Assembly: GCF_050320075.1 (NCBI RefSeq)
Contig: NZ_CP190018.1
Strand: one strand, 5' to 3'
Source: Escherichia coli
GTDB taxonomy: Bacteria; Pseudomonadota; Gammaproteobacteria; Enterobacterales; Enterobacteriaceae
DNA length: 64,000 bases
A program made the position numbers and the translations under genes. Under the pieces are notes generated by a model. It was not told the origin of the DNA, made no database searches, and saw nothing but the letters and a program-made list of their open reading frames with translations. Shown here in pieces: positions 2,526 through 49,189 of the stretch; the first letter of the stretch is position 1; every line of letters begins with the position of its first letter.

Positions 2526-2527
2526 AT

Positions 2528-3730: not shown

Positions 3731-3774
3731 ACCATAACCCCATGTTTACTGTGAAATTTTTCATTGATTGCAGA

Positions 3775-24299: not shown

Positions 24300-24326
24300 T
24301 TCACTCAGATTATCAGGGAGTATTTT

Positions 24327-24788: not shown

Positions 24789-24807
24789 CATAAACGAGGG
24801 ATAACAC

Positions 24808-27800
24808 ATGAGTGAAGGACCAGGCGGGCCACAGGGAGCGACCGCAGGCGGTACGCTGGCAATGCGAATGCTGTCACAGCAGGCGATGGTCGCCAGCCAG
24901 ATGAAACGGGCAGCCAACGACAAAGCCATTGCACAGATGCTGGCATCAAAAAAGTCCGGCCCCCCCGCCGCCAGGCTGGGCGATGAAATTCAGCACAAGA
25001 GTTTTTTGGGGGCGCTGGCAGGGGCCGTGCTGGGGGCGATAGTGACCATCGCAGAAGGTTGCCTGATTATGGCCGCCTGTGCCACCGGCCCTTATGCGCT
25101 GGTTCTGGTGCCTGCGCTGATGTATGCCAGCTATAAGGCGAGTGATTATGTGGAGGAGAAACAGAACCAGCTTGAATCATGGATAAACAGCTTTTGTGAC
25201 ACGGACGGCGCCATCAATACCGGTTCTGAAAATGTAAACATTAACGGAAAGCCCGCTGCCAGGGCCGCCGTCACCCTTCCCCCTCCTCCCCCACCTGGAG
25301 CAATACCTGAAATCCCACAGGGGGAACCCTCATGGGGTGATATTGCCACTGACCTGCTTGAATCGGCAGCGGAAAAAGCAGTACCACTGGCGAAGGCCTG
25401 GGGGAACGCTGTTATCACCCTGACGGACAGCAATGCCGGTTTTATGGATCGCGTCAGCGCCGGCGCATCGCTTCTGTTTCCCGCCGGTCCGGTATTAATG
25501 GAGTTTGCCACCATGGTGGGCGGGCGTGGCGAAATCAAAAAAGATGTGGATTTCCCGGAAGCCGGTGAGGACACGGCGCTCTGCGACAAGGAGAACAAAC
25601 CACCGAGGATAGCCCAGGGCAGCAGCAACGTCTTTATCAACAATCAGCCCGCCGCGCGCAAGGGCGACAAACTGGAGTGCAGCGCGGCAATCGTGGAAGG
25701 TTCGCCGGACGTCTTTATTGGCGGTGAACAGGTGACCTATCTGGATATCCAGCCAGAGTTCCCGCCGTGGCAGAGAATGATCCTGGGGGGAATAACGATA
25801 GCCAGCTATCTTCTGCCGCCAGCGGGACTGCTGGGAAAACTGAAGAATCTGGCGAGACTCGGCAAACTGGGGAACCTGCTGGGGAAAAGCGGGAAGCTGC
25901 TGGGGGCAAAGCTCGGCGCGTTGCTGGGAAAAACAGGTAAGTCGTTAAAAAGTATTGCCAATAAAGTCATCAGATGGGTAACAGATCCTGTCGATCCGGT
26001 AACCGGCGCGTACTGCGACGAACGTACCGACTTTACGCTGGGCCAGACCCTCCCCCTCTCCTTCACCCGTTTCCACAGTTCTGTACTGCCGCTGCATGGC
26101 CTGACCGGCGTGGGCTGGAGCGACTCCTGGAGCGAATACGCCTGGGTGCGTGAACAGGGAAACCGGGTGGATATCATCAGCCAGGGAGCCACGCTGAACT
26201 TCGCCTTCGACGGTGACAGTGATACGGCGGTTAACCCGTATCACGCCCAGTACATTCTGCGCCGCCGCGATGATTATCTGGAGCTGTTCGACAGGGATGC
26301 ACTGAGCAGCCGCTTCTTTTATGACGCCTTTCCGGGAATGCGTCTGCGCCACCCGGTGACTGACGATACCAGCGATGACCGCCTGGCACACAGCCCCAAT
26401 GACCGGATGTACATGCTGGGCGGGATGAGCGACACCGCCAGCAACCGCATCACGTTTGAGCGCGACAGCCAGTACCGGATCACAGGTGTCAGTCACACCG
26501 ACGGGATCCGGCTTAAACTGACGTACCACGCCAGCGGCTACCTGAAAGCCATTCACCGCACGGATAACGGCATACAGACGCTGGCGACCTACGAACAGGA
26601 TGCGCGGGGGCGGCTGACAGAAGCGGATGCGCGGCTGGACTACCACCTGTTTTATGAGTACGACGCTGCGGACCGGATCATCCGCTGGTCCGATAACGAC
26701 CAGACGTGGAGCCGTTTCACCTACGATGAACAGGGCCGGTGCGTGAATGTCACCGGGGCGGAGGGCTATTACAACGCCACGCTGGACTATGGTGACGGCT
26801 GCACCACCGTGACGGACGGCAAGGGCATTCACCGTTATTACTATGATCCTGACGGCAATATTCTGCGGGAAGCAGCGCCGGACGGCAGCACCACCATGTA
26901 TGAATGGGATGAATTCCATCACCTGCTGGCCCGTCACTCCCCTGCCGGGCGGGTGGAGAAATTTGAATACAACGCCGCACACGGTCAGTTAAGCCGTTAC
27001 ACGGCGGCAGACGGCGCGGAGTGGCAGTACCGCTATGATGAGCGCGGCCTGCTCAGCAACATCACCGACCCTGCCGGGCAGACGTGGACACAGCAGTGTG
27101 ATGAACGCGGCCTGCCGGTAAGTCTGGTGTCGCCACAGGGCGAAGAGACCCGGCTGGCATACACCGCTCAGGGGCTGCTGTCGGGAATATTCCGCCAGGA
27201 TGAACGGCGTCTGGGCATAGAGTACGACCACCACAACCGGCCGGAAACACTCACCGACGTGATGGGCCGCGAACACCACACCGAATACAGTGGTCACGAC
27301 CTGCCGGTGAAGATGCGCGGCCCCGGCGGTCAGTCAGTGAGGTTGCAGTGGCAGCAGCACCATAAACTGAGCGGCCTTGAGCGCACTGGCACCGGCGCGG
27401 AAGGATTCCGCTACGACCGTCACGGCAACCTGCTGGCGTACACGGACGGTAACGGTGTTGTCTGGACAATGGAGTACGGCCCGTTTGATTTGCCGGTGGC
27501 GCGAACGGACGGTGAAGGCCACCGCTGGCAGTACCGCTACGATAAAGACACGCTGCAACTGACAGAAGTCATCAACCCGCAGGGTGAGTCATATCTTTAT
27601 GTTCTGGATAACTGCGGCCGGGTGACGGAAGAGCGTGACTGGGGCGGCGTGGTCTGGCGTTACCGTTATGATGCCGATGGCCTGTGTACCGCCAGGGTTA
27701 ACGGTCTGGAGGAAACCATCCTCTACAGCCGGGACGCCGCAGGCCGCCTGGCAGAAGTCATCACGCCGGAAGGCAAAACGCAGTATGCGTATGACAAATC

Positions 27801-29640: not shown

Positions 29641-29662
29641 AGCAAACTAATGGTAACTAAAT

Positions 29663-30373
29663 ATGACAAAAGTTCTTGAGAATGAAGAGTTCAATTCTAT
29701 ACATATAGACGAAGGTGGGGTTTTTAATAGTTTACGCTTTGAAAAATGTCTTTTTCAAAGCTGTAGCATACTTAGCAGAAAACTAAATGATAATAGTGAT
29801 TTACCTCCTCGCTTTGAAAACATTCTCATTAAAGATTGCACTGCTCTTAATTGTGTAAGTGGCCCAGCTTTTTTAAAAGATGTAACTGTTGAGAATTTTA
29901 GGACCGGTGATATTTTTCTTATTTATTCCACTATGTTTCATCATGTAACATTAAAAGGAAAGCTTGGGGCAATAAAAATAAATAAAAAAGATTATGTGCG
30001 TGACTATGATAGCCATCAAAGACATATTGAGATGATGAGAACGAGATTTTATTCTCAGATAGATTGGGCGATGGATATATCACAGGCGAAGTTTTTAAGT
30101 TTCTCCTGCAAAGGTATCCCAGCAAAATTAATTAGACGAGATAGTGAGACTCAATTTGTTGTAACGAGGAAACGTTTCAACTCTATGGATGTACTAAATG
30201 CAGAATTTAAAGGACAATACCCGTTTGTTTATTTACTGCTGGAGCTCTTTTTAGAATCAGATGAAGATGACCAGGTATTAGTTACACCATTAGGCAAAGC
30301 AAAAAAATATTATCAGCCAATTCTCGAAGGATTTAGAGAGTTAAGACGAGCAGGAATACTCGAACCTAACTAA
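29663..30373 (+). CDS. Putative cognate immunity protein of the Rhs C-terminal toxin
   Basis: 236-aa ORF starting 22 nt after the rhs stop, AT-rich codon usage unlike the Rhs core; position is the canonical immunity slot. No recognisable family. Confidence 0.6.
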   Translation: MTKVLENEEFNSIHIDEGGVFNSLRFEKCLFQSCSILSRKLNDNSDLPPRFENILIKDCTALNCVSGPAFLKDVTVENFRTGDIFLIYSTMFHHVTLKGKLGAIKINKKDYVRDYDSHQRHIEMMRTRFYSQIDWAMDISQAKFLSFSCKGIPAKLIRRDSETQFVVTRKRFNSMDVLNAEFKGQYPFVYLLLELFLESDEDDQVLVTPLGKAKKYYQPILEGFRELRRAGILEPN

Positions 30374-30383
30374 ATAAGGGTTA

Positions 30384-32412
30384 TATTCCGCCAGGATGAA
30401 CGGCGTCTGGGCATAGAGTACGACCACCACAACCGGCCGGAAACACTCACCGACGTGATGGGCCGCGAACACCACACCGAATACAGTGGTCACGACCTGC
30501 CGGTGAAGATGCGCGGCCCCGGCGGTCAGTCAGTGCGCTTACAGTGGCAGCAGCACCATAAACTGAGTGGCCTTGAGCGCACTGGCACCGGCGCGGAAGG
30601 ATTCCGCTACGACCGCCACGGCAACCTGCTGGCCTGGACGGACGGTAACGGTGTTGTCTGGACAATGGAATACGGCCCGTTTGATTTGCCGGTGGCGCGA
30701 ACGGACGGTGAAGGCCACCGCTGGCAGTACCGCTACGATAAAGACACGCTGCAACTGACAGAAGTCATTAACCCGCAGGGTGAGTCATATCTTTATGTTC
30801 TGGATAACTGCGGCCGGGTGACGGAAGAGCATGACTGGGGCGGCGTGGTCTGGCGTTACCGCTATGACGCCGATGGCCTGTGTACCGCCAGGGTCAACGG
30901 CCTGGAGGAAACCATCCTCTACAGCCGGGACGCCGCAGGCCGCCTGGCAGAAGTCATCACGCCGGAAGGCAAAACGCAGTATGCCTATGACAAATCCGGC
31001 AGGCTGACGGGTATCTTCAGCCCGGACGGCACATCACAGCGCACCGGCTATGACGAACGCGGGCGGGTGAATGTCACCACTCAGGGCCGACGGGCCATTG
31101 AATACCACTACCCCGACGAACACACCGTCATCCGCTGTATCCTGCCACCGGAAGATGAACGCGACAGACACCCCGGTGAATCCCTGCTGAAAACCACGTA
31201 CCGCTACAACGCCGCCGGAGAACTGACGGAGGTCATTCTGCCGGGGGATGAGACGCTGACGTTCAGCCGTGATGAGGCAGGACGTGAAGTGCTCCGGCAC
31301 AGTAACCGGGGTTTTGCCTGTGAACAGGGCTGGAATGCAGCCGGTCAGCCTGTCAGTCAGCGCGCCGGACTTTTCCCGGCAGAAGCCACATGGGGCGGGC
31401 TGCTCCCCTCACGGGTACGGGAGTACCGTTACGACAGCGCGGGTAATGTGTCAGGCGTCACCAGCCGGGAAGATTACGGACGGGAAACACGGCGGGAATA
31501 CCGGCTGGACCGGAACGGCCAGGTCACGGCGGTGACAGCCTCAGGCACCGGGCTGGGCTATGGCGAAGGCGATGAGTCCTATGGCTATGACAGCTGCGGC
31601 TACCTGAAGGCGCAGTCTGCGGGCTGGCACCGGATAAGTGAAGAGACTGACCAGTATGCCGGAGGCCACCGGCTGAAACAGGCCGGAAACACGCAGTATG
31701 ACTATGACGCCGCAGGCCGGATGGTCAGCCGCATAAAACACCGTGACGGCTACCGCCCGGAAACAGAGCGGTTCCGGTGGGACAGCCGTGACCAGCTGAC
31801 CGGGTATTGCAGCGCACAGGGTGAACAGTGGGAATACCGCCACGACGCCAGCGGCAGACGGACGGAAAAACGCTGCGACCGGAAGAAAATCCGCATCACG
31901 TACCTGTGGGACGGCGAAGTATTGCGGAAATCCGGGAATACCGCGATGATAAACTGTACAGCGTACGGCACCTGGTGTTTAACGGCTTTGAGCTGATAAG
32001 CCAGCAGTTCAGCCGGGTACGGCAGGCGCATCCGTCGGTGGCCCCGCAGTGGGTGACACGGACGAATCATGCGGTGAGCGACCTGACGGGCCGTCCGCTG
32101 ATGCTCTTTAACAGTGAAGGTAAAACCGTCTGGCGACCGGGACAGACCAGCCTGTGGGGGCTGGCACTCAGCCTGCCCGCAGACACCGGCTACCCGGACC
32201 CGCGCGGGGAACTGGACCCGGAAGCCGACCCCGGCCTGCTGTATGCAGGACAGTGGCAGGATGCAGAATCCGGGCTGTGCTATAACCGGTTCCGGTATTA
32301 CGAGCCGGAAACCGGGATGTACCTGGTGAGTGATCCGCTGGGGTTGCTGGGGGGTGAGCAGACTTACCGGTATGTGCCAAATCCGTGTGGGTGGGTTGAT
32401 CCGCTGGGATTG
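30384..32412 (+). repeat. Direct repeat copy 2 (orphan Rhs core fragment)
   Basis: See copy 1 at 27186..29217. Confidence 0.9.
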
Positions 32413-32865
32413 GCTGCAAGTTCTAAAATCAGCAGTTTGATGGACTATATTGGCGATGGTCGTCGTGTTAGTGGGCATACGGGTTTCCTGGATGGGGTTC
32501 GTTTATCACGTAGTCAAATAAACAATATTGCTAAAGAAATGGAGAAGCTAGGAATTAAAGTAATAAGGAAAGCAGATAAATATTTGCCACCAAATGCTAG
32601 GGCAGCTTTTGATTATGGCCTTCGCAATATTTATCTTAGGAAAAATGCTACCTTATATGAGGTGTATCATGAAGTGATTCATGCTAAGCAATTTGCGAAA
32701 ATTGGACGAGAAGCATACGAAGCACTAGGACGTTTATCTAGGGAGGAACACGTTCTAAATGAAATATTAAAAAGTAAAAATTTATTCAATGAGGCGGAAA
32801 TAGCTCATGCCATAAAATATGTTGAGGGATTGAGAGAAAAATTCATGATGGGACTAATAAATTGA
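30384..32865 (+). pseudogene. Orphan Rhs core-fragment + alternative C-terminal toxin domain, frameshifted
   Basis: Repeats the 3' 2 kb of the rhs core; 1-bp deletion near 31917 (GGCGAAGTATTGCGG vs GGCGACAGTATTGCGG in the main copy) splits it into ORFs 30455..31996 and 31828..32865; ends DPLGL (32398-32412) + divergent ~150-aa CT containing HEVIH. Confidence 0.8.
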
Positions 32866-33113
32866 TAAAACATAACAAAATAACTATCGAAATGGCTCTT
32901 GACTTGGCTCGGCGTGAGTTAGAGTTAAGGGAAATTCCTTATATTAAAAATAGTCTACATGCCAATTACAGCTATAAATCTATTAGTATTGGTTCTAAGC
33001 AAGGTTGGTTAATTTCAGCGAAATTAAAAGTCCCTGAAACTTTTGAGCCTGATATGATATTTATTGAGATATCTGACCCAGAAGGTTTTATTAATATTCC
33101 TGATGTATTATAA
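32862..33113 (+). CDS. Putative immunity protein for the orphan Rhs-CT
   Basis: 83-aa low-GC ORF overlapping the orphan CT stop; start codon uncertain (TTG in ORF track). Confidence 0.45.
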   Translation: MIKHNKITIEMALDLARRELELREIPYIKNSLHANYSYKSISIGSKQGWLISAKLKVPETFEPDMIFIEISDPEGFINIPDVL

Positions 33114-33309
33114 ACTACGTTAGAGGTTTTGTTATAAGGTAATCGGTTTCTTTACAGACCGCTGGCGTACATCGCACAGAGGCTGCTAACAGGGATATTC
33201 CTGCCTGGATGAACGCAAGGCAAGATCATGGAAATAGTGATATACATCACTATTTCCATCCTGATTTTAGCTATCGCATTAATAAAACAGCGGATGTTAG
33301 CCAATATCG

Positions 33310-33500
33310 AAACCAGTAACCCGTATCACGCCCAGTACATCCTGCGCCGCCGCGATGATTACCTGGTGCTGTTCGACCGTGATGCCCTGAGCTGCCGCTT
33401 CTTTTATGACGCCTTTCCGGGAATGCGTCTGCGCCACCAGGTGACCGGCGATACCGACGATGACCGCCTGGCACACAGCCCCGCAGACCGGATGTATACA
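33310..33500 (+). pseudogene. Vestigial Rhs core fragment
   Basis: NPYHAQYILRRRDDYLVLFDRDALSCRFFYDAFPGMRLRH... matches main rhs at ~26228..26420; embedded in ORF 33228..33539 with unrelated flanks. Confidence 0.7.
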
Positions 33501-33579
33501 GGGAAAGATCATCAGAAGTACACTTTTTGTACTAAATAATTCACATTTTATGTTTAAAAATTGAGATATTCCTCATTAC

Positions 33580-34800
33580 CTGAAGCTGTTTTTTATTGCT
33601 TATACATGATCAAATACTCCTTACATAATTAAGGAGAACAAAATGGAACTTAAAAAATTGATGGAACATATTTCTATTATTCCCGATTACAGACAAGCCT
33701 GGAAAGTGGAACATAAATTATCGGATATTCTATTGTTGACTATTTGTGCCGTTATTTCTGGTGCGGAAGATTGGGAAGATATAGAGGATTTTGGGGAAAC
33801 ACATCTCGATTTTTTGAAGCAATATGGTGATTTTGAAAATGGTATTCCTGTTCACGATACCATTGCCAGAGTTGTATCCTGTATCAGTCCTGCAAAATTT
33901 CACGAGTGCTTTATTAACTGGATGCGTGACTGCCATTCTTCAGATGATAAAGACGTCATTGCAATTGATGGAAAAACGCTCCGGCACTCTTATGACAAGA
34001 GTCGCCGCAGGGGAGCGATTCATGTCATTAGTGCGTTCTCAACAATGCACAGTCTGGTCATCGGACAGATCAGGACGGATGAGAAATCCAATGAGATTAC
34101 AGCTATCCCAGAACTTCTTAACATGCTGGATATTAAAGGAAAAATCATCACAACTGATGCGATGGGTTGCCAGAAAGATATTGCAGAGAAGATACAAAAA
34201 CAGGGAGGTGATTATTTATTCGCGGTAAAAGGAAACCAGGGGCGGCTAAATAAAGCCTTCGAGGAAAAATTTCCGCTGAAAGAATTAAATAATCCAGAGC
34301 ATGACAGTTACGCAATGAGTGAAAAGAGTCACGGCAGAGAAGAAATCCGTCTTCACATTGTTTGCGATGTCCCTGATGAACTTATTGATTTCACGTTTGA
34401 ATGGAAAGGTCTGAAGAAATTATGCGTGGCAGTCTCCTTTCGGTCAATAATAGCAGAACAAAAGAAAGAGCCAGAAATGACGGTCAGATATTATATTAGT
34501 TCTGCTGATTTAACCGCAGAGAAGTTCGCCACAGCAATCCGAAACCACTGGCACGTGGAGAATAAGCTGCACTGGCGTCTGGACGTGGTAATGAATGAAG
34601 ACGACTGCAAAATAAGAAGAGGAAATGCAGCAGAATTATTTTCAGGGATACGGCACATCGCTATTAATATTTTGACGAATGATAAGGTATTCAAGGCAGG
34701 GTTAAGACGTAAGATGCGAAAAGCAGCCATGGACAGAAACTATCTGGCGTCAGTCCTTGCGGGGAGCGGGCTTTCGTAATCTTGCCCTGCCTGCTCACCT
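33580..34800 (+). mobile_element. H-rpt / ISAs1-family insertion sequence (approximate bounds)
   Basis: Transposase CDS 33643..34779; terminal inverted repeats not delimited by me. Confidence 0.5.
33643..34779 (+). CDS. H-repeat-associated protein / ISAs1-family transposase (H-rpt)
   Basis: 378-aa [63 protein letters not shown]... recognised as the H-rpt (YhhI/YdcC-like) transposase that accompanies Rhs elements. Confidence 0.85.
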
Positions 34801-35049: not shown

Positions 35050-37287
35050 GTGGACTGGCTTCTTGATGTTTTTGCTACCTGGCTCTACGGCTTAAAAGTA
35101 ATCGCGATAACGTTAGCGGTCATCATGTTCATCAGCGGGCTGGACGATTTTTTTATTGATGTCGTCTACTGGGTACGCCGCATTAAACGCAAGTTGAGTG
35201 TTTATCGCCGCTACCCGCGAATGAGTTACCGCGAACTGTATAAACCAGATGAAAAACCGTTAGCGATTATGGTTCCGGCGTGGAATGAAACGGGCGTCAT
35301 CGGCAATATGGCCGAGCTGGCGGCGACCACGCTCGACTATGAAAACTATCATATCTTTGTTGGCACCTACCCCAACGACCCCGATACTCAGCGTGATGTT
35401 GACGAAGTGTGCGCTCGCTTCCCGAATGTGCATAAGGTAGTCTGCGCGCGACCTGGCCCCACCAGCAAAGCCGACTGCCTGAACAACGTGCTGGACGCCA
35501 TCACCCAGTTTGAGCGTAGCGCCAATTTCGCTTTTGCTGGTTTTATTCTGCATGACGCCGAAGATGTGATTTCACCGATGGAATTGCGTCTGTTCAACTA
35601 TCTGGTCGAGCGTAAAGATCTGATTCAGATCCCGGTGTATCCGTTCGAACGCGAATGGACGCACTTCACCAGCATGACTTACATTGATGAGTTTTCAGAA
35701 CTGCATGGCAAAGATGTTCCGGTGCGTGAAGCCCTCGCCGGACAAGTGCCCAGCGCAGGCGTCGGTACCTGTTTCAGCCGCCGCGCCGTGACCGCACTGT
35801 TAGCTGACGGTGACGGTATTGCTTTCGACGTGCAGAGTCTTACTGAAGATTACGACATTGGCTTCCGCCTGAAAGAAAAAGGTATGACGGAAATTTTTGT
35901 CCGTTTTCCGGTGGTGGACGAAGCCAAAGAACGCGAGCAGCGTAAATTTTTACAGCACGCGCGGACGTCAAACATGATCTGCGTGCGCGAATATTTCCCC
36001 GATACCTTTTCGACTGCGGTTCGACAAAAATCTCGCTGGATCATCGGCATTGTTTTCCAGGGCTTTAAAACCCACAAATGGACCTCCAGTCTGACGCTGA
36101 ACTACTTTCTCTGGCGCGACCGCAAAGGGGCAATCAGTAACTTTGTCAGCTTCCTCGCGATGCTGGTGATGATCCAGCTTTTGCTGTTGCTGGCGTATGA
36201 AAGTTTGTGGCCCGATGCCTGGCATTTCCTTTCTATTTTCAGCGGCAGCGCATGGTTAATGACTCTGCTGTAGCTAAACTTTGGCTTGATGATTAACCGC
36301 ATCGTGCAGCGGGTGATTTTCGTTACTGGCTACTACGGCCTGACGCAGGGGCTGCTATCTGTCCTGCGTCTTTTCTGGGGCAACCTGATTAACTTCATGG
36401 CCAACTGGCGCGCGTTAAAACAGGTACTTCAACACGGCGATCCACGTCGTGTCGCGTGGGATAAAACAACGCATGACTTCCCCAGCGTGACTGGCGATAC
36501 CCGCTCGTTGCGTCCGTTAGGTCAAATCCTGCTGGAAAATCAGGTCATCACTGAAGAACAACTCGATACAGCACTGCGTAATCGCGTCGAAGGTCTACGC
36601 CTGGGCGGTTCAATGCTGATGCAGGGGCTGATTAGCGCCGAACAGCTGGCACAGGCGCTGGCAGAGCAAAACGGCGTGGCGTGGGAGTCGATCGACGCCT
36701 GGCAGATCCCTTCATCACTGATTGCCGAAATGCCGGCTTCCGTGGCGCTGCATTATGCAGTACTGCCGCTGCGTCTGGAAAATGATGAGTTAATTGTCGG
36801 CAGTGAAGATGGTATTGACCCGGTTTCGCTGGCGGCCCTGACGCGTAAAGTCGGACGCAAAGTGCGTTACGTCATTGTTCTGCGGGGACAAATTGTCACG
36901 GGGTTACGCCACTGGTATGCGCGCCGACGCGGTCACGATCCGCGGGCAATGTTGTACAATGCGGTTCAGCATCAGTGGCTCACGGAACAGCAGGCCGGTG
37001 AAATCTGGCGGCAATATGTGCCGCATCAGTTCCTGTTCGCCGAAATACTGACCACGCTCGGTCATATTAATCGTTCAGCAATTAACGTGTTGTTATTGCG
37101 CCATGAACGCAGTTCTCTGCCGCTCGGCAAGTTTTTGGTCACCGAAGGCGTTATCAGCCAGGAAACGTTGGATCGCGTCCTGACAATTCAACGCGAATTA
37201 CAAGTTTCGATGCAATCACTATTACTCAAAGCAGGTTTAAACACAGAACAGGTTGCGCAACTGGAGTCCGAAAATGAAGGAGAATAA
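35050..37287 (+). pseudogene. nfrB: Phage N4 adsorption protein B (family-2 glycosyltransferase), interrupted by in-frame amber codon
   Basis: ORFs 35050..36273 (407 aa) and 36286..37287 (333 aa) are in the same frame, separated only by TAG at 36271-36273; 407+1+337 = 745 codons, the full NfrB length as I recall it. Confidence 0.8.
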
Positions 37288-40246
37288 CCTTAATCGCGTC
37301 ATCGGATGGTCTGGTTTACTGCTGACGTCTTTATTGAGTACCAGCGCACTCGCAGACAATATCGGCACCAGCGCAGAAGAGCTGGGGCTGAGCGATTATC
37401 GCCATTTTGTTATTTATCCCCGTCTCGACAAGGCGCTGAAGGCACAGAAAAATAACGACGAAGCAACCGCCATCCGCGAATTTGAATATATACACCAGCA
37501 GGTGCCGGATAATATTCCGCTAACTTTATACCTTGCTGAAGCCTATCGCCATTTTGGTCATGATGCCCGGGCGCGGCTGTTGCTTGAGGATCAACTGAAA
37601 CGTCACCCAGGAGATGCCCGACTTGAGCGCAGTCTGGCGGCTATTCCAGTTGAAGTGAAAAGCGTTACGACTGTTGAAGAACTGCTTGCCCAGCAAAAAG
37701 CGTGCGATGCTGCGCCGACCCTGCGTTGTCGCAGTGAAGTCGGGCAGAATGCCCTGCGGCTGGCACAATTACCTGTCGCCAGAGCGCAACTGAACGATGC
37801 GACGTTTGCTGCATCGCCGGAAGGAAAAACGCTGCGAACCGATCTGCTGCAACGCGCAATCTACCTGAAACAATGGTCCCAGGCAGATACGCTATACAAT
37901 GAAGCACGCCAGCAGAACACATTAAGCGCGGCAGAACGCCGTCAGTGGTTTGACGTGCTTCTTGCCGGGCAGCTGGATGATCGGATCCTGGCGCTGCAAT
38001 CACAGGGGATCTTCACCGATCCTCAGTCATATATTACTTACGCGACCGCGCTGGCTTATCGTGGCGAAAAAACACGCCTCCAGCATTATCTCATTGAAAA
38101 TACGCCGCTATTTACCACGGACGCACAAGAGAAAAGTTGGCTCTATCTGTTATCTAAATACAGCGGCAACCCCGTTCAGGCGTTGGCGAATTATACGGTA
38201 CAGTTTGCCGATAACCGCCAGTATGTTGTTGGCGCGACGCTACCGGTGCTGTTAAAAGAAGGTCAGTACGACGCAGCGCAAAAACTGCTCGCCACCCTCC
38301 CCGCCAATGAAATGCTTGAGGAGCGTTATACCGTTAGCGTAGCGACCCATAACAAGGCTGAAGCTCTGCGTCTGGCACGATTGCTGTATCAGCAAGAACC
38401 GGCAAATCTTACCCGCCTGGATCAACTGACCTGGCAACTGATGCAGAACGAGCAGTCACGCGAAGCTGCCGATTTATTGCTGCAACGCTATCCTTTCCAG
38501 GGCGATGCGCGTGTCAGCCAGACTTTAATGGCGCGACTGGCGTCTCTGCTGGAAAGTCATCCTTACCTGGCAACGCCGGCGAAGGTGGCGATTTTATCGA
38601 AACCCTTACCGCTGGCGGAGCAACGTCAGTGGCAAAGTCAGTTGCCGGGTATTGCAGATAATTGCCCGGCAATAGTTCGCTTGCTGGGCGATATGTCGCC
38701 TTCCTACGATGCCGCCGCCTGGAACCGTCTGGCAAAGTGTTATCGGGACACGCTACCCGGTGTGGCGTTGTATGCATGGCTTCAGGCCGAACAACGACAA
38801 CCGAACGCCTGGCAACATCGTGCGGTAGCCTATCAGGCGTATCAGGTTGAGGACTACGCCACCGCACTGGCGGCCTGGCAGAAAATCAGTCTTCACGACA
38901 TGAGCAATGAGGATCTGCTTGCTGCTGCCAATACCGCCCAGGCGGCAGGAAATGGTGCGGCTCGCGATCGCTGGCTTCAGCAGGCAGAACAACGTGGGCT
39001 GGGAAACAATGCCCTCTACTGGTGGCTACATGCGCAACGTTACATTCCTGGTCAGCCGGAACTCGCACTGAACGATCTCACGCGCTCAATCAATATTGCG
39101 CCTTCTGCCAACGCTTACGTTGCGCGGGCGACAATTTATCGCCAACGTCATAATGTCCCGGCGGCGGTGAGTGATTTGCGCGCCGCGCTGGAACTGGAAC
39201 CGAATAATAGCAACACCCAGGCAGCGCTCGGTTACGCCTTGTGGGATAGCGGTGATATCGCACAGTCGCGGGAAATGCTCGAACAGGCGCATAAAGGGCT
39301 ACCGGACGATCCGGCACTTATCCGACAACTGGCCTACGTGAACCAGCGTCTGGATGACATGCCTGCGACGCAGCACTACGCCCGGCTGGTGATTGATGAC
39401 ATTGATAATCAGGCGCTGATAACCCCACTGACCCCAGAGCAAAATCAGCAACGCTTCAATTTCCGCCGTCTGCATGAGGAGGTCGGTCGCCGCTGGACGT
39501 TCAGTTTCGATTCTTCCATCGGCTTGCGTTCCGGCGCGATGAGTACCGCTAACAATAATGTCGGCGGCGCAGCGCCAGGGAAAAGCTATCGTAGCTACGG
39601 GCAACTGGAATCCGAGTACCGCATCGGACGCAATATGCTGCTGGAAGGCGACCTGCTCTCAGTTTATAGCCGCGTCTTTGCCGATACCGGAGAAAACGGG
39701 GTGATGATGCCGGTGAAAAATCCGATGTCCGGCACCGGTCTGCGCTGGAAGCCGCTGCGCGATCAGATCTTTTTCCTCGCCGTCGAACAGCAGTTGCCGC
39801 TGAACGGGCAAAATGGCGCATCCGATACCATGCTGCGCGCCAGCGCCTCATTCTTTAATGGCGGCAAATACAGCGACGAATGGCACCCGAACGGTTCAGG
39901 CTGGTTTGCCCAAAACCTGTACCTCGATGCGGCGCAATATATCCGCCAGGATATTCAGGCGTGGACGGCAGATTATCGCGTAAGCTGGCATCAGAAGGTA
40001 GCTAACGGACAGACTATTGAGCCTTACGCTCACGTTCAGGACAACGGCTATCGTGATAAAGGCACTCAGGGCGCGCAGCTTGGCGGTGTCGGGGTCCGCT
40101 GGAATATCTGGACCGGCGAGACGCACTACGACGCCTGGCCGCACAAAGTCAGTCTCGGCGTCGAATATCAACATACCTTTAAGGCGATTAATCAACGTAA
40201 CGGAGAGCGCAACAACGCGTTTCTCACCATTGGAGTGCACTGGTAA
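37274..40246 (+). CDS. nfrA: Phage N4 adsorption outer-membrane protein A (TPR-containing)
   Basis: ORF 37253..40246; start at MKENNLNRVIGWSGLLLTSLLSTSALA (signal peptide); overlaps nfrB 3' end. Confidence 0.9.
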   Translation: MKENNLNRVIGWSGLLLTSLLSTSALADNIGTSAEELGLSDYRHFVIYPRLDKALKAQKNNDEATAIREFEYIHQQVPDNIPLTLYLAEAYRHFGHDARARLLLEDQLKRHPGDARLERSLAAIPVEVKSVTTVEELLAQQKACDAAPTLRCRSEVGQNALRLAQLPVARAQLNDATFAASPEGKTLRTDLLQRAIYLKQWSQADTLYNEARQQNTLSAAERRQWFDVLLAGQLDDRILALQSQGIFTDPQSYITYATALAYRGEKTRLQHYLIENTPLFTTDAQEKSWLYLLSKYSGNPVQALANYTVQFADNRQYVVGATLPVLLKEGQYDAAQKLLATLPANEMLEERYTVSVATHNKAEALRLARLLYQQEPANLTRLDQLTWQLMQNEQSREAADLLLQRYPFQGDARVSQTLMARLASLLESHPYLATPAKVAILSKPLPLAEQRQWQSQLPGIADNCPAIVRLLGDMSPSYDAAAWNRLAKCYRDTLPGVALYAWLQAEQRQPNAWQHRAVAYQAYQVEDYATALAAWQKISLHDMSNEDLLAAANTAQAAGNGAARDRWLQQAEQRGLGNNALYWWLHAQRYIPGQPELALNDLTRSINIAPSANAYVARATIYRQRHNVPAAVSDLRAALELEPNNSNTQAALGYALWDSGDIAQSREMLEQAHKGLPDDPALIRQLAYVNQRLDDMPATQHYARLVIDDIDNQALITPLTPEQNQQRFNFRRLHEEVGRRWTFSFDSSIGLRSGAMSTANNNVGGAAPGKSYRSYGQLESEYRIGRNMLLEGDLLSVYSRVFADTGENGVMMPVKNPMSGTGLRWKPLRDQIFFLAVEQQLPLNGQNGASDTMLRASASFFNGGKYSDEWHPNGSGWFAQNLYLDAAQYIRQDIQAWTADYRVSWHQKVANGQTIEPYAHVQDNGYRDKGTQGAQLGGVGVRWNIWTGETHYDAWPHKVSLGVEYQHTFKAINQRNGERNNAFLTIGVHW

Positions 40247-41137
40247 ATGCGTAAGTTCATTTTCGTATTGCTGACACTGCTTTTGGTCAGCCCTTTTTCC
40301 TTTGCGATGAAAGGTATTATCTGGCAACCACAAAACCGTGATAGTCAGGTTACCGATACCCAGTGGCAGGGGCTGATGAGTCAGTTACGTTTGCAAGGCT
40401 TCGATACCCTGGTTTTGCAATGGACCCGTTACGGCGATGCATTCACCCAGCCAGAACAGCGCGCGTTATTGTTTAAGCGTGCAGCAGCTGCGCAACAGGC
40501 TGGCCTGAAGCTGATTGTCGGGCTGAATGCCGATCCGGAATTTTTTATGCACCAGAAACAGTCATCCGCGGCGCTGGAAAGCTATCTTAATCGCCTGCTG
40601 GCTGCCGATCTCCAGCAAGCCAGATTATGGAGCGCCGCGCCTGGCGTAACGCCGGATGGCTGGTATATCAGCGCGGAAATTGACGACCTGAACTGGCGCA
40701 GCGAAGCCGCCCGTCAACCTTTGCTGACATGGTTAAACAACGCTCAGCGGTTGATTAGCGATGTTTCAGCAAAACCGGTTTATATCAGTAGTTTTTTCGC
40801 CGGAAACATGTCGCCCGATGGCTATCGCCAACTGCTGGAACACGTTAAAGCAACCGGCGTTAATGTCTGGGTACAGGATGGCAGCGGCGTGAATAAACTT
40901 ACCGCTGAACAGCGTGAACGTTATCTACAGGCCAGCGCCGATTGCCAGAGTTCCGCCCCAGCAAGCGGCATTGTTTATGAACTGTTTGTCGCCGGCAAAG
41001 GCAAAACCTTTACAGCGAAACCGAAACCGAATGCAGAGATCGCCTCGCTGTTAGCGAAACGTTCCTCTTGCGGTAAAGACACGCTCTATTTCTCTCTGCG
41101 CTATTTGCCCGTCGCACACGGCATTCTCGAGTATTAA
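40247..41137 (+). CDS. ybcH: Conserved protein YbcH (DUF4434)
   Basis: 296-aa ORF with signal peptide; synteny nfrB-nfrA-ybcH. Confidence 0.85.
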   Translation: MRKFIFVLLTLLLVSPFSFAMKGIIWQPQNRDSQVTDTQWQGLMSQLRLQGFDTLVLQWTRYGDAFTQPEQRALLFKRAAAAQQAGLKLIVGLNADPEFFMHQKQSSAALESYLNRLLAADLQQARLWSAAPGVTPDGWYISAEIDDLNWRSEAARQPLLTWLNNAQRLISDVSAKPVYISSFFAGNMSPDGYRQLLEHVKATGVNVWVQDGSGVNKLTAEQRERYLQASADCQSSAPASGIVYELFVAGKGKTFTAKPKPNAEIASLLAKRSSCGKDTLYFSLRYLPVAHGILEY

Positions 41138-41319
41138 ATCCCCTCCAGGTAAGTCGGGTACGACCTGGCTTACCTCTTTCGCTCTCGTCAGAATTCCATC
41201 AAGATTAATTGCTAAAAAGCGTGCTAAAGAAAGAAGATCGTTATCGGCGAACGGGCCGATCACTCATGCAGGAAGCATAGATCCTTTGAGCGGAGTTTCT
41301 GATATCTGAGGAGTGCGAA

Positions 41320-42072
41320 ATGCAATTGAGCAGCAGTGAACCTTGCGTGGTGATCCTGACCGAAAAAGAGGTAGAGGTAAGCGTTAATAACCATGCCACG
41401 TTTACCCTTCCGAAAAATTACCTGGCCGCCTTCGCGTGCAACAATAACGTCATTGAACTCTCAACGTTAAATCACGTATTAATCACCCACATCAACCGCA
41501 ACATCATCAACGATTATCTGTTGTTTTTAAATAAGAACTTAACCTGCGTAAAGCCCTGGTCGCGGCTGGCTACCCCGGTTATCGCTTGTCATAGCCGTAC
41601 ACCGGAAGTGTTCCGGCTAGCCGCCAACCACAGCAAGCAGCAACCCAGCAAACCCTGCGAAGCGGAGTTGACGCGCGCATTGCTTTTTACCGTATTGTCT
41701 AACTTTCTTGAGCAATCGCGGTTTATTGCCCTACTGATGTATATCTTACGCAGCAGCGTCCGCGACAGCGTCTGCCGCATTATTCAAAGCGATATTCAGC
41801 ATTACTGGAATCTGCGAATTGTCGCCAGTTCGCTATGTTTAAGCCCCAGCCTGCTCAAAAAGAAATTAAAAAACGAAAATACCAGCTATAGCCAGATTGT
41901 CACAGAGTGTCGTATGCGTTACGCCGTACAGATGTTATTGATGGATAACAAAAATATCACTCAGGTAGCGCAATTATGTGGCTATAGCAGCACGTCGTAC
42001 TTTATCTCTGTTTTTAAGGCGTTTTACGGCCTGACACCGTTGAATTATCTCGCCAAACAGCGACAAAAGTGA
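41320..42072 (+). CDS. envY: AraC-family transcriptional regulator (porin thermoregulation)
   Basis: 250-aa ORF MQLSSSEPCVVILTEKEVEVSVNNHATF... with C-terminal AraC HTH. Confidence 0.85.
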   Translation: MQLSSSEPCVVILTEKEVEVSVNNHATFTLPKNYLAAFACNNNVIELSTLNHVLITHINRNIINDYLLFLNKNLTCVKPWSRLATPVIACHSRTPEVFRLAANHSKQQPSKPCEAELTRALLFTVLSNFLEQSRFIALLMYILRSSVRDSVCRIIQSDIQHYWNLRIVASSLCLSPSLLKKKLKNENTSYSQIVTECRMRYAVQMLLMDNKNITQVAQLCGYSSTSYFISVFKAFYGLTPLNYLAKQRQK

Positions 42073-42125
42073 TGTGGTGAAGGGCAAAGCGGAAACGGAT
42101 AAGACGGGGATAAATGAAGAAGAAA

Positions 42126-42202
42126 TGGCGCGCCCTGCAGGATTCGAACCTGCGGCCCACGACTTAGAAGGTCGTTGCTCTATCCAACTGAGCTAAGGGC
42201 GC
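42126..42202 (-). tRNA. argU: tRNA-Arg (anticodon UCU)
   Basis: Reverse complement reads GCGCCCTTAGCTCAGTTGGATAGAGCAACGACCTTCTAAGTCGTGGGCCGCAGGTTCGAATCCTGCAGGGCGCGCCA; cloverleaf-compatible, anticodon loop CTTCTAA. Confidence 0.92.
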
Positions 42203-42443
42203 GTTGATACCGCAATGCGGTGTAATCGCGTGAATTATACGGTCAACCCTTGCTGAGTCAATGGCTTTTGATCTGGTTGCTGAACAAGTGAACGACCGCG
42301 TCTGATTTTCTGATTTATTCGCTATAGCGGCAAACAAACGCACATCGCTGCGCGTCTGAATCAAGAAAACCCGTATTTTCATGTATCAAAGTACAATTTC
42401 CCGCCCTAACGGAAAATTGTCCGATCCAATGAGACTGGTAACT

Positions 42444-43076
42444 ATGAAACCAACGTCGGTGATCATTATGGATACTCATCCTATCATCAGAATGTCTATT
42501 GAAGTTCTGTTGCAAAAAAACAATGAATTGCAAATTGTCCTGAAAACGGATGATTATCGCATAACCATCGATTATCTCCGAACCCGTCCTGTTGATTTAA
42601 TTATTATGGATATAGACTTGCCCGGAACAGACGGTTTTACCTTCCTGAAAAGGATCAAACAAATCCAGAGCACAGTGAAAGTATTATTTTTATCATCGAA
42701 ATCAGAATGCTTTTATGCTGGCAGAGCGATACAAGCTGGTGCTAACGGTTTTGTCAGTAAATGCAATGATCAGAATGATATTTTTCACGCCGTTCAGATG
42801 ATCCTCTCCGGATACACTTTTTTTCCCAGCGAAACGCTCAACTATATAAAAAGCAATAAATGCAGTACGAATAGTTCAACGGTCACGGTGCTATCTAATC
42901 GTGAAGTGACCATATTACGTTATCTGGTTAGCGGATTATCCAATAAAGAAATTGCCGATAAGTTATTACTTAGCAATAAAACAGTTAGTGCGCATAAATC
43001 TAATATTTATGGCAAGCTAGGTTTGCATTCAATTGTAGAGCTTATCGACTACGCCAAATTATATGAATTAATATAA
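42444..43076 (+). CDS. fimZ: LuxR/FixJ-family response regulator of fimbrial expression
   Basis: ORF 42381..43076; start at MKPTSVIIMDTHPIIRMSIEVLL...; receiver domain + C-terminal LuxR HTH. Confidence 0.85.
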   Translation: MKPTSVIIMDTHPIIRMSIEVLLQKNNELQIVLKTDDYRITIDYLRTRPVDLIIMDIDLPGTDGFTFLKRIKQIQSTVKVLFLSSKSECFYAGRAIQAGANGFVSKCNDQNDIFHAVQMILSGYTFFPSETLNYIKSNKCSTNSSTVTVLSNREVTILRYLVSGLSNKEIADKLLLSNKTVSAHKSNIYGKLGLHSIVELIDYAKLYELI

Positions 43077-43078
43077 TA

Positions 43079-43594
43079 TTAATTATAATTGATCATAAAT
43101 ATCGCATCCGCTTTCGCCACACCTGGCTGAACACCGCTGGCTAACGCTCGATAATTGGCAAAAAAGTTTAGTGTGACATTGCCATTTGCATCTACTTCCT
43201 CAGTCTGGCTCGCCTCCCCCAGTGCGAGCCGGGAGCGATCGCTATTACGTAATTCGATGGCGACGGTTTGTGCCATTGCGGGATCATCCAGAGCCAGCAG
43301 GTTGGCATCAGATGCCGGCGTTCCCGTAAATAAAATCGCAACTGAACCCGGAGGACATCCCTCCAGCCGCAGGCTAAAAGGGACGAGTGCCGTGGTATCG
43401 CCAGCGCTCAGTAATTGTGTCGTAGGCCATCTGCCTAAATCTACCGTCTTATCCTTATCCGCTGTGTTTACGGTACAGGAGAAATCAACAACGTTACCGT
43501 GCAAATTGATATTAATCGTTCCTAAAGGGTCAACTGCCCATCCACTGGAACTCCACAGTAGCCCGCAGAAACAGCTAAAGAGTACTCTTCTCAT
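43079..43594 (-). CDS. sfmF: Fimbrial-like minor subunit
   Basis: ORF 43079..43789; start placed at MRRVLFSCFCGLLWSSSGWA (signal peptide), 171 aa. Confidence 0.8.
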   Translation of the reverse strand: MRRVLFSCFCGLLWSSSGWAVDPLGTININLHGNVVDFSCTVNTADKDKTVDLGRWPTTQLLSAGDTTALVPFSLRLEGCPPGSVAILFTGTPASDANLLALDDPAMAQTVAIELRNSDRSRLALGEASQTEEVDANGNVTLNFFANYRALASGVQPGVAKADAIFMINYN

Positions 43595-43604
43595 TCTCCG
43601 TACC

Positions 43605-44612
43605 TCATTGATAATCGACGCGTAAATACCCCAGCGCGCTAAACGGCCCTTCGGTCGGTTTTTGACCGGTAATACTGATAGGCCAGGCGCGAAGTGTGAC
43701 ATTGGCTGCCGCAGCTGCATCCAGACGGAAAGGAATAACGCTATTGAGATCGTTAGGCGTGATCGGCGTATCGTTCTGATCGGCCACAATAAAACCTAAA
43801 TCCTGATTGTCCGACACCATCGCCTGACCAGAAACGGCACTGGCTTCTAGACGCATTGTTAAATAAGCCTGCGCAGCAACATTCGTACATTTGATCGCAA
43901 TGCTCTTGGTTTGCGGCATGACACCAGCTGGTCGATTCCCCGGCCCTGCCGCACTAAATAACGATGCGCCGATATCACCAAAATCAAATTCAACAATTTG
44001 CCCGGCATTTAATTCGCAGTTTTGCGGTACTTCAACCCGGCCACCAAAACTAATGGTATAAACAGGTGTAACCAACGGATCGTTAGGCGTTGATGTCACA
44101 TACACGGTAAACATCACCTGTCTGGGGATCTCCACCATGTTAATAAAGGGACGAATAACCTTTAAACGAAATATCAAACGAGAATCCATCACCCCGAACG
44201 GAAGGTTTTGCGAAACGTTAGGATCTGTTCCCATACGAATATAATTTTGCGGAGGGAATTGAATATCCATCACGCTATCAACCAGACTCATCGCACCTAA
44301 TAGATAATCATTTAATTGCATATATTTATAATTATCGATAGTTTCCTGAACAATAAAGTTGGTGACATAACTACGGTATGTATAATTCACCAGCGTGCCG
44401 GGTGGACAAATTGCTGACACACCTACCCAGCCGGATTTTTCCGGTAAAACAACAATCTGCCCTGGCTGGTTATTGGTGCTATTAAAGACATTTGAGAGAT
44501 CATAGTGTTCATCTTCTGCTACGCCAGTACTATTTGCACAAACAGTAGCCCAGGATATGTTTGTCAGACACAAACATGCCATTGCCAATAATAATCTGCA
44601 GATTATCTTCAT
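43605..44612 (-). CDS. sfmH: Fimbrial adhesin-like protein
   Basis: 335-aa ORF with signal peptide; FimH-like; exact start uncertain. Confidence 0.8.
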   Translation of the reverse strand: MKIICRLLLAMACLCLTNISWATVCANSTGVAEDEHYDLSNVFNSTNNQPGQIVVLPEKSGWVGVSAICPPGTLVNYTYRSYVTNFIVQETIDNYKYMQLNDYLLGAMSLVDSVMDIQFPPQNYIRMGTDPNVSQNLPFGVMDSRLIFRLKVIRPFINMVEIPRQVMFTVYVTSTPNDPLVTPVYTISFGGRVEVPQNCELNAGQIVEFDFGDIGASLFSAAGPGNRPAGVMPQTKSIAIKCTNVAAQAYLTMRLEASAVSGQAMVSDNQDLGFIVADQNDTPITPNDLNSVIPFRLDAAAAANVTLRAWPISITGQKPTEGPFSALGYLRVDYQ

Positions 44613-44624
44613 TGATAATTTCCT

Positions 44625-47234
44625 TTATGAGCCAGGATGTGTGCAAACTGCCGAAATAACAGTGACGGCTTGCTGTAAGCTTTGCTTCGGCAATACATAG
44701 TGCGCAATGCAGCGTGAGTTCGCGCCGTCTCCCCACTGAACCAGTAATTCACCAGACAATGGCGCACCGCTTAAATAAACTTGCCCGTCATCACCCACCA
44801 TACTGGTTATTCCGGTACTGTTTTCCCGTACCAGTGATCCAAACGGCACCGGTTTTCCGCCCTGGGTAACGGTAATGAGCGCCCGTACGCCTATGCGGGT
44901 ATCAAAATTGGCACGAACCAACGCGCCTTGCGTCGGCACAACGCTGCTAATATTTTTTTCAACATCGATGGAATTCCCCATCGTATTGGTATCAAGCGCG
45001 ATACGGTTATACCGATAAACCGTGGCATACGGCATCACCGCATAGCCGCGCCAGTCGGTTAAAATGCCAGTTTGATTTTCAATGCGTACACCGCCTGCGC
45101 CAGGCGCTTTAATCAAAACATTGGTATCCCCTAAAGGCTGGCTCAGCGTTATACCATTTTCATGCCCGACCACACCGCCAGACAGCTGCCAGTTAACGTC
45201 ATGTTGATCGCGGTCGTAGTTATACCCGACCCCCAGCGTACCGTAAGCGGCCTGCCAGTTTGCCGTGGCGCTGCCCGTATACCCATTATTCGAGGTATCG
45301 CCCTGGCTTACGTGATAACTCAGGTTGTGGCCTTCCAGTAAGGTCCCACCAACGCCTGCCAGCCAGCTATTTTGCCCGTTGCTGTTACGGTTGGCGTTAA
45401 AAGAGGCATAAGCGCGGTCGAGCGCATTTTCCCGGGTGTAGCGACGTTTGGTCAGAACATTGAAAGGCACTGAAACATTAAGTCCGACAATACGTTCGTT
45501 ATCGGGGATCCCTACAGATTCATTCCACGAAAATGAGAGTGAATAACTGATGCCAACCCAGCTGCTGGTATACCCCACCTGATACCAGGTATCTGAATCC
45601 GAAGTATTCCAGTATTTTTGATGGGTACCAGAAATATAAAGCGAGCCAAAGTCATTAAGTGATTGTGAAATATTTAACTGCAAACGGTCTTTACGACTAA
45701 AGCGTAAATTGTGGTAATTCACGATTATCGGCTCATCGCGATGCTCACCGTCATAATCGTAATCATATTCGTACCCCTCCATACGACGATACGCAACATC
45801 ATCAAGGGTATAAAAACCTTGTGTCGAATAGCGGTAACCCATTAACTGAAAATTGGTGCCGAAAGTGTTCATTGATTTCGCATAGAGGAAGCGAATGGAA
45901 TCCCCCTCATGACGACTGTCGTCGGCTAACTGACTGCGCGCATGCGTTACATCCAGCGACACTGCGCCCCAGTTCCCGAGATTGCGCCCCAGCCCTAATA
46001 AAAAGGCGGTGTAATTTGCAGATAATTGCGTCCCGCCGTAGGCAGTAAATTCCTGTGGTAAACCGCCGAGTGCCGTGCCCTGAAAAAAGAAAGGCGACGA
46101 TTGCTGACTATTACCGCTACGAAAATCGCCCGCCGTCAGGTCAAATTTGAAACGCCCTTCGCGTTGTAAAATTGGCACTGTTGAATACGGAATCGTGTAA
46201 TTCTGCTGATTACCATCGCGCTCGTCGATGGTGACGTCCAGATCGCCATTTGAAGATGTCGGGTGCAAATCTGTAATTTCAAAAGCGCCGGGGGAAACAT
46301 AGCTTTGATAGATAATAAAACCATTTTGCCGAATCGTTAGCTGGGCCGCCGTACGGGCAATCCCACGTACCGTTGGGGCAAACCCTTGCTGGCTATCAGG
46401 ATACATATTATCGGAAGAGTAAAGCCGTACACCACGAAATCCAACGCCATCGAAAATATCACTTCCTGTATTGCCGTCTCCCATTACCAGTTCACTTTTC
46501 AGCGGAATAATGGCGCGCTGTACCCAGGTGCCAATATTATTCCACTGTTCTGAATGATATGCATTTCCGCGAAAATAGTTCCAGGAACCATTGTTGCGTA
46601 ATCGCCACGGGCCAATATTAATCCCGCTGAGTTCACTAAAAAAATAGCTATCGTTACCATTACCTCTGTTACCGGTGAAATTATAATTCAGGAGTAAAGC
46701 AGGAATACCTTCATCCCACTCTTCAGGCGGAATGTAACCGTGAGCGCTACTCAACAACGCTATCTGAGGAATAGTGATGTTCAGGCGCATCGCTGCAAAA
46801 TCAAAGTTAATTGTGGCATCAGGTACAGCTTTCAGTAAATTAATGCATTTATTATTTTGCTGCTGGGCTAACTCGGGGAATGCACTGCTATTAAGGCCAA
46901 TTCGTTCAAGGAGTGCCTGATTAAAACAAGGCATTAACCCACCTGATTTATCACCTGTATTTACTGTCGTCGATTCAAATACGATATCCTGTGAACCAAT
47001 GAACTCATCATTACGCCAGAGATCCACCCGATACACGCCCGCAGGTTGATGATTACCTCTCTCAAAGCGCGATAAATCAGCAACGGATGTGCCATTCTCT
47101 AATAAAAATGCCGGGTTGAAATAACTTTCCGCATAGCTTAAAAAGGAGGGTAAAATGGCAAGAGATGAATAACAAATTCCGGCCAGACACCAGGTATACC
47201 TCTGCGGAATATCCGTAGTAGTGGGTATTTTCAT
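44625..47234 (-). CDS. sfmD: Fimbrial outer-membrane usher
   Basis: 869-aa ORF; usher family; sfm operon synteny. Confidence 0.9.
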
Positions 47235-47264
47235 AATTAGCTCTGATATTGTCAGATGATTCGG

Positions 47265-47957
47265 TTAGTTTAAGTTCACTTCTCTGACCGGGGTTACTGA
47301 ACCATAATCATTAACGGTCTGAAATTTCAGCTTTCCCTGCACTCCTGAGGGTAAGGGAATTTGTGAATTAACTCTGGGTGCAGCCATAGCATTCCCCAGT
47401 TTTTGGCTGCCCACTTGCAAGTTAACCAGGGTGACATAAAAAGGTGATGGATTATGAACATTGATATAGTTACCGGATCGCGAAAACTTGAGTGTGTCCG
47501 GCGCTTCTGCGGGTAATTCTTGTAATTGAATTGGACGGAGAAATAATTTCATGCGCGATAAAATCGCCAGTTGCAAAACATTCCTGCCGTTCAATGCATT
47601 TTTATCTACCGAAGGGATCGTCTTAACATTCATCCAGAACAGAGACTCACGATCTGCCGCCAGCGGTGGACCGGTGTAAATAATACGCAAAGTATTTTCG
47701 CTTTTGGGTTCACTAACAAACAGTGGCGGTGTAATGATGAATGACTTTTCTTTTACACCGCTGCTGTTTTCAATCCACGAATTGACCAGAAAGCGCTCAT
47801 TGGTATGGCTATTTCTAATCCATACCGCAGTCTGTTTAGCATCAGCGGGATAAATAATACGCGTGGCACCTAATGCGATCCCTCCGGCAGCATGGGCGCT
47901 GGCCGAAATGATTAAATAAAATATAATGAGCATCAATAACTTTATTTTAGTCATCAT
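47265..47957 (-). CDS. sfmC: Periplasmic fimbrial chaperone
   Basis: 230-aa ORF with signal peptide, PapD-like. Confidence 0.9.
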
Positions 47958-48176
47958 AGTTAATACGCCTTGTGTATTCCTGACGGCAAAAATAAGAAAT
48001 ATAAAGAAATGATTGCTTTGGTTTCTTACAACACATCATTCCCTTTTCATTTAATAAAGCGGCATGATACAAAGTGAACATGATTTCGATTTACATTGCC
48101 ACCATACCGCTTCAGACAACCGGTACATTACTTTGTTATAAGACGTGATATATAATTCAAAACAACGTGGTTTTGA

Positions 48177-48719
48177 TTATTCGTATCTCATAATAAAAGT
48201 CGCGTCAGCATTTGCTTGCCCTGCTGATGCACTTGTACCGGTGCCTTTATAACGTGCAGAAAAATGAAGAACGTTGGTCCCGGGGATCAAGTTCTGGTTG
48301 GTTGAGAAGCTATTCCCATCAGGTTTGAGAATTGCGGATGTATTATCAAGTATTTCAATACCGACACCCGTTGCTGTTGTTGTATTAGTACTGGATGCAA
48401 TGGCCAATAAATTATCATTGATTGCATCCGCCTGACCAGAAAATGCAACGGCAGCATTAGCGGCAACGACAGGATCGCAGTCGTTCAACTGTATAGTGAA
48501 TGGAATTAATGCAGAGGTATTACCAACAGCATTGAAAATATCGGTACGATATTGACCGAGTGTGACAACCTGGTCTGCCGAGTCAGTATTCACTGAACAG
48601 GCAGCATTCACCAGTTCGCCTTCAAAGTGAATTGTACCGCCATCTACAACGGCAGCATAACTACCCGTAGCGGCGAATAGTGCGGCGGCCAGCGCAGACG
48701 AAATAAATCTTAATTTCAT
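48177..48719 (-). CDS. sfmA: Type 1-like fimbrial major subunit
   Basis: ORF 48177..48752; start at [22 protein letters not shown]; FimA-like. Confidence 0.85.
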
Positions 48720-49189
48720 ATATATTCCTTCAATCTCATTTATCGACTCCACATCCGTATATAACCGATTACTTTATTTAAGACACTGATAGTAGTAAAT
48801 TCCTTTTTATCCTCTAAGAATGTCTTAATTGAAAATATGCACTCTATTCTAAAAAATAGAGAGCCCCGTTAGATGAATACTTCCGCGCAAAATATATTCA
48901 ACACAAATATAGACCTGAAGCGGTAAATTACCAGGCTGAAAATTCTTTTTATATTGTCAGGTATTTCTTAAATTATCTTAATCCTTTGACAAGGAAATAA
49001 GTCAGTTCCAGATTTACAACGCCATCATGGACGAAAAATGAAGCTTTCAATCTCAGCGACGGTGCGCATCACCTTCGCAAGAGGTCGCTTCACGCGATAA
49101 ATCTGAAACGAAACCTGACAGCGCGCCCCGCTTCTGACAAAATAGGCACATCCCCTTCGACCTACGTAACAGATGGAATCCTCTCTCTG

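Follow-up and report, generated by a model that had tools for sequence, protein, structure and literature searches.

In Escherichia coli K-12, the tRNA gene argU and the regulator gene envY lie on either side of DLP12, a cryptic lambdoid prophage integrated in argU (Lindsey, Mullin and Walker 1989, cited in PMC10057817). In the stretch of E. coli DNA analysed here (64 kb of contig NZ_CP190018.1, hereafter the window), the two genes are direct neighbours, separated by a short spacer. The locus raises the question of whether this adjacency marks an attachment site that holds no prophage, whether the genes ompT and appY are missing as part of the same difference, and whether the site was ever occupied. 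The 3' end of argU in the window is very probably an unoccupied attB for DLP12-type lambdoid phages, lacking ompT and appY as the cargo of such a prophage. The general setting is established: appY lies within DLP12, an element that is highly prevalent (PMC10057817), and ompT also lies within DLP12 and is absent from Shigella and EIEC (PMC5723341; Nakata et al. 1993 reviewed there). The variable presence of ompT and appY as DLP12 cargo at argU is already textbook and review material.

The argU site in the window and in K-12

The window contains one tRNA gene only, a tRNA-Arg with anticodon TCT predicted by ARAGORN, and in an identity check no base of it differs from K-12 argU over 77 nt (Table 1). 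By tblastn, the proteins encoded on the two sides of the tRNA gene show 99.6% identity to K-12 EnvY over 250 aa and 99.5% identity to K-12 FimZ over 210 aa. The local gene order is nfrB, nfrA, ybcH, envY, argU, fimZ, sfmF, sfmH, sfmD, in agreement with the PGAP annotation of strain Ec-U3. This urine isolate from Burkina Faso is the closest complete genome, and its chromosome (NZ_CM192149.1) is 99.998% identical to window positions 17100-64000, with one 1-nt indel in 46,902 bases. In the same PGAP annotation the sfm fimbrial genes (window 43079-48720; 25981-31621 in the Ec-U3 segment compared) are labelled fimH, fimC and fimA ('type 1 fimbria...'); by position these are the paralogues sfmH, sfmC and sfmA, and the labels could mislead.

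Table 1. Features at the argU-envY junction of the window.
Feature	Position	Strand	Evidence
argU (dnaY), tRNA-Arg(UCU), 77 nt, intact	42126-42202	-	ARAGORN
envY, AraC-family regulator, chromosomal gene on B' side	41320-42072	+	ORF list, tblastn, Ec-U3 PGAP annotation
Spacer between envY stop and att core, bacterial B' arm	42073-42123	.	three-way attB/attL/attR alignment, blastn blocks
Unoccupied attB core of DLP12-type phages, 47 bp, CTTCTAAGTCGTGGGCCGCAGGTTCGAATCCTGCAGGGCGCGCCATT (very probable)	42124-42170	-	exact-match positions, mismatch-tolerant search, phage attP
fimZ, chromosomal gene on B side, upstream of argU	42444-43076	+	tblastn, Ec-U3 PGAP annotation
Sigma-70 promoter-like site, TTGACT + 16-nt spacer + TATAAT, 11/12 matches	42234-42261	-	consensus scan

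The gap between the envY stop (42072) and the 3' end of argU (42126) covers 42073-42125, which makes 53 nt and agrees with the first-pass annotation of this DNA. It measures 53 nt rather than 45 nt because the A-run of envY at 42065-42068 holds one A fewer than in K-12, shifting the stop 8 nt upstream. Comparison of the C-termini (window 42060-42081) gives a protein of 250 aa ending in ...KQRQK* in the window, against 253 aa ending in ...KQRQKVMW* in K-12. The B' arm spacer equals the K-12 sequence between attR and envY save for two substitutions, with no prophage DNA inside, and a consensus scan for intrinsic terminators returned none in the 53 nt between the convergent envY and argU. Judged by its pattern, the sigma-70 promoter-like site, which lies some 30 nt ahead of argU, is probably the argU promoter.

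Of the 47 bp in the att core, 45 form the 3' end of argU and 2 lie beyond it. Among exact matches, K-12 has two copies (564755-564801 and 586057-586103, 21,302 bp apart) where the window has one; these numbers stay the same at up to three mismatches, with 0 expected by chance. The RefSeq feature 'cryptic prophage DLP12' (NC_000913.3 564755..586056) is bounded exactly by the two core copies. In K-12 MG1655, argU (564723-564799) and envY (586147-586908) are about 21.3 kb apart, so an adjacency in K-12 as well, named by the first-pass annotation as a possible objection, is ruled out. The same annotation had placed DLP12, appY and ompT between the two genes of K-12, and the RefSeq annotation of MG1655 bears this out. 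The DLP12 feature holds intD, emrE, ybcK, rusA, quuD, nmpC, the essD-rrrD-rzpD lysis genes, borD, nohD and tfaD, with appY and ompT at its far end. The wording 'DLP12 plus appY and ompT' implies that the two genes are separate items; both lie within the att boundaries as cargo. Because the att repeats of K-12 enclose both genes, the absence of appY and ompT forms part of one att-to-att difference.

In a blastn comparison of the window with K-12 562000-592000, only two blocks are returned. The first joins window 36228-42173 to K-12 592000-586054 at 98.1% identity, and the second joins window 42124-44925 to K-12 564801-562000 at 98.4% identity, so that the window is collinear with K-12 on either side of the argU site. 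The two blocks share 50 bp of the window (42124-42173) and meet at the core, and K-12 564802-586053 finds no blastn match in the window; the breakpoints that the first-pass annotation had proposed to locate by alignment fall at the att sites, and the 21,302 bp missing from the window are the annotated DLP12. In the three-way alignment, the window agrees with K-12 attL from the core into argU and with K-12 attR from the core towards envY. Tandem accretion in K-12 would be suggested by a third, degenerate att copy separating appY-ompT from the phage body; none is found there at up to three mismatches.

With the same locus, the same 47-bp core and the same bacterial flanks, the window amounts to the K-12 sequence minus exactly DLP12. 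The intD, emrE and nmpC genes, the lysis cassette, appY and ompT are present at the K-12 site and all absent from that of the window. Judged from its sequence, the argU site of the window is a scar-free unoccupied attB of classical structure. The empty integration site described in the first-pass annotation is upheld by the single core with K-12 flanks, and only its placement needs correction: the interval given was the spacer, whereas the core lies almost entirely in the 3' part of argU.

Phages and islands that use the same target

When phage genomes are searched with the argU region, the same core turns up in over 12 temperate-phage records. Escherichia phages 2G7b, ev243, the PhiR series, Kati and Turner carry the argU core at 98-100% identity, and the Salmonella phages SEN22 and BIS08P22 at 94% identity; in the Escherichia phage records, about a dozen besides 2G7b, the core extends over 47-54 bp. 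In 2G7b, ev243, the PhiR series, Kati, Turner and SEN22, the phage's own attP matches the attB of the window. 2G7b and its kin are complete phage genomes and potential occupants, whereas the window presents the empty site.

Phage 2G7b (LR595866, Nesevirus) is represented by a complete genome with the core at 28115-28164. Its attP is flanked on one side by an omptin with 98.7% amino acid identity to K-12 OmpT and on the other by an integrase with 99.5% identity to IntD (1628-4227 in the phage segment compared), and the attP arms equal the phage-side arms of K-12, attR-left and attL-right. Each site of the Campbell model is thereby represented by a sequence: attP in 2G7b, attB in the window, and attL and attR in K-12. 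From its gene content and attP, 2G7b looks like an intact DLP12 counterpart that could deliver ompT; no relevant paper on phage '2G7b' came up in a literature search.

The arrangement of these sites suggests the following course of integration. A DLP12-type phage would bring a tyrosine integrase (IntD) and an attP that repeats the last 45 nt of argU and the 2 nt after them. Recombination within the 47-bp core would turn the single site into an attL and an attR and rebuild the tRNA gene from the phage copy of the argU 3' end. With ompT and int on opposite sides of attP in the phage genome, ompT would come to lie at the attR end, beside envY; in K-12, appY is the gene next to it. An empty site would thus leave envY directly beside argU, without ompT, appY and the rest of the prophage cargo, as in the window. 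The attB of the window is predicted to be integration-competent, and temperate phages that target argU, which can deliver ompT, would find their landing site in this strain free and intact.

Occupied versions of the site are known. In ExPEC, argU-associated islands that carry ompT include PAI-S88-argU (38 kb) and PAI-IHE3034-argU (50 kb), and the prevalence of ompT differs widely between ExPEC groups (PMC7545054). Among UPEC isolates, the context of ompT beside envY, ybcH and nfrA varies (PMC6854850). In the B2 strain APEC E12053 (NZ_CP126928.1; 6973-11502 in the segment compared), a 3.4-kb remnant comprises an integrase fragment, a tail-fibre assembly fragment, a methyltransferase and ompT; argU adjoins folD, the whole sfm-fimZ cluster is absent, and envY is missing too, so that ompT-attR abuts ybcH. 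The ExPEC islands and APEC E12053 share the target and the ompT cargo at the attR end; unlike the window, their sites are occupied.

Frequency of the empty state and history of the site

Of 5426 complete E. coli genomes, 2504 (about 46%) have a contiguous envY-argU-fimZ arrangement, defined as a match to at least 80% of a 1151-bp junction-spanning query at a single place; 13 of them are 100% identical over the 1151-bp junction. All 40 of the closest chromosomes share the empty state. Across the same 5426 genomes, ompT is present in 3095, and the K-12-type ompT-attR-envY junction is found in 1583. By subtraction (3095 - (5426 - 2504)), at least 173 genomes combine a contiguous site with ompT. 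An empty site therefore does not strictly mean that ompT is absent, and the link is strong but not absolute. The empty argU site is a common, ordinary strain polymorphism that is already known.

Two histories lead to such a site. It may never have been occupied, or an earlier DLP12-type prophage may have been lost, either through precise excision by Int/Xis or because RecA recombined the two 47-bp att repeats with each other. A loss of this kind would restore a scar-free attB, remove ompT and appY together, and could be adaptive, as argued for Shigella and EIEC. Sequence does not tell the two apart, because precise site-specific excision leaves no scar: it would yield exactly the attB seen here, and that attB fits a never-occupied site equally well. 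In K-12, DLP12 excision is reported to be inducible by Hha (PMC4632033), and in the Shigella and EIEC literature the choice between a DLP12 that was never acquired and one that was excised is left undecided (PMC5723341). The urinary origin of the closest genome would also suit a loss. Against a loss, the window is free of prophage remnants by tblastn, and an empty state found in 2504 of 5426 genomes and in all 40 closest chromosomes fits an old inherited allele better than a recent event. We consider an earlier excision unlikely and lean towards an inherited empty allele, because the state is so common and shared by every close relative listed.

A narrower version of the loss, in which a recent precise excision in the urinary-isolate lineage was selected for the removal of OmpT and AppY, as a Shigella-like pathoadaptive change in extraintestinal E. 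coli, is improbable. The resemblance itself is limited to the locus. In Shigella and EIEC, as in the window, ompT is absent as the DLP12-type element at argU is absent, and in both cases it was either never acquired or excised. Shigella and EIEC are invasive pathovars, whereas the genome closest to the window is a urinary isolate, and no link to IcsA or pINV is implied.

A deletion of appY and ompT that was independent of the missing prophage is very improbable. Independent loss is not foreign to this locus, since APEC E12053 has lost envY beside its prophage remnant. In the window, the missing segment runs exactly from att to att (21,302 bp in K-12), with appY and ompT inside the K-12 repeats; ompT adjoins attP within the genome of phage 2G7b, and envY, ybcH and nfrA are intact. 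The exact att-to-att breakpoints refute a separate deletion. The OmpT-negative genotype of E. coli B and BL21 maps to the same chromosomal region as the site of the window. In those strains, ompT was reportedly lost by a deletion that also removed neighbouring genes; unlike that deletion, the difference in the window spares envY, ybcH and nfrA and has the att sites as breakpoints. One genome, H137, matched the tRNA core only in the ompT-attR-envY junction search, which would fit a deletion of the B type.

An assembly artefact, in which attL and attR collapsed and the prophage between them was dropped, as can happen to direct repeats in short-read assemblies, is effectively refuted on two counts: a repeat of 47 bp is much too small to make 21 kb of unique sequence collapse, and the junction recurs among the complete genomes, including the 13 with full identity.

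OmpT, AppY and neighbouring features

Eleven K-12 proteins of DLP12 (IntD, AppY, OmpT, EmrE, YbcK, RusA, QuuD, RrrD, BorD, NohD and TfaD) were compared with the window by tblastn, and none of them is encoded there; the sole signal is a weak AraC-family paralogy between AppY and EnvY. The statement in the first-pass annotation that ompT and appY occur nowhere else in the window is thus confirmed by tblastn. Its further statement that the strain lacks OmpT stands for the argU-envY locus and for the window; absence from the whole genome is not readable from 64 kb and is approached through the Ec-U3 chromosome as a proxy.

For this proxy, a unique segment of the window was joined to a K-12 gene and the matching places on the Ec-U3 chromosome were counted by megablast, a search that covers the chromosome, with plasmids and omptins below about 85% nucleotide identity (ompP, arlC, plasmid ompT) outside its reach. 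The segment joined to ompT, to appY or to intD matches one place in each case, and the segment joined to appY and emrE, or to appY, intD and emrE, matches two. On the Ec-U3 chromosome, ompT, appY and intD are accordingly absent at megablast sensitivity. In the 40 closest empty-site chromosomes, Ec-U3 included, the segment joined to K-12 ompT likewise gives one place each, so none of them shows the gene at this sensitivity. The one emrE-like sequence of the Ec-U3 chromosome lies outside the region that matches the window, and that genome is thus not devoid of all DLP12 cargo genes. In the Ec-U3 lineage, the DLP12-borne SMR efflux gene emrE appears to move separately from the argU element.

The strain is predicted to be OmpT-negative in phenotype, with genome-wide absence of ompT taken by proxy from the Ec-U3 chromosome. 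OmpT, a standard marker in ExPEC typing, cleaves cationic antimicrobial peptides as well as recombinant proteins; its very probable absence matters as strain characterisation only. The strain also probably lacks AppY, a regulator that affects acid stress, biofilm formation and motility.

Elsewhere in the window, nfrB (35050-37287) contains an internal amber at codon 408, where TAG replaces the TGG of K-12 (stop at 36271-36273). The Ec-U3 nfrB is flagged by PGAP as a pseudogene with 'internal stop'. NfrB is a c-di-GMP-activated glycosyltransferase that is needed together with NfrA for adsorption of phage N4, and the strain may therefore be without Nfr exopolysaccharide and resistant to N4.

The cusS and nfrB genes are adjacent in K-12, unlike in the window, where a vgrG gene of a T6SS, a DcrB-like gene and a cluster of Rhs toxins lie in the interval between them (about 22398-34779); after these come a truncated pseudogene of a zincin-like toxin and an ISEc1 transposase. 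Two Rhs segments of about 2 kb (27187-29216 and 30383-32411) are 97.6% identical to each other, and the sole difference between the window and Ec-U3, the 1-nt indel, lies near 31918 in this Rhs region.
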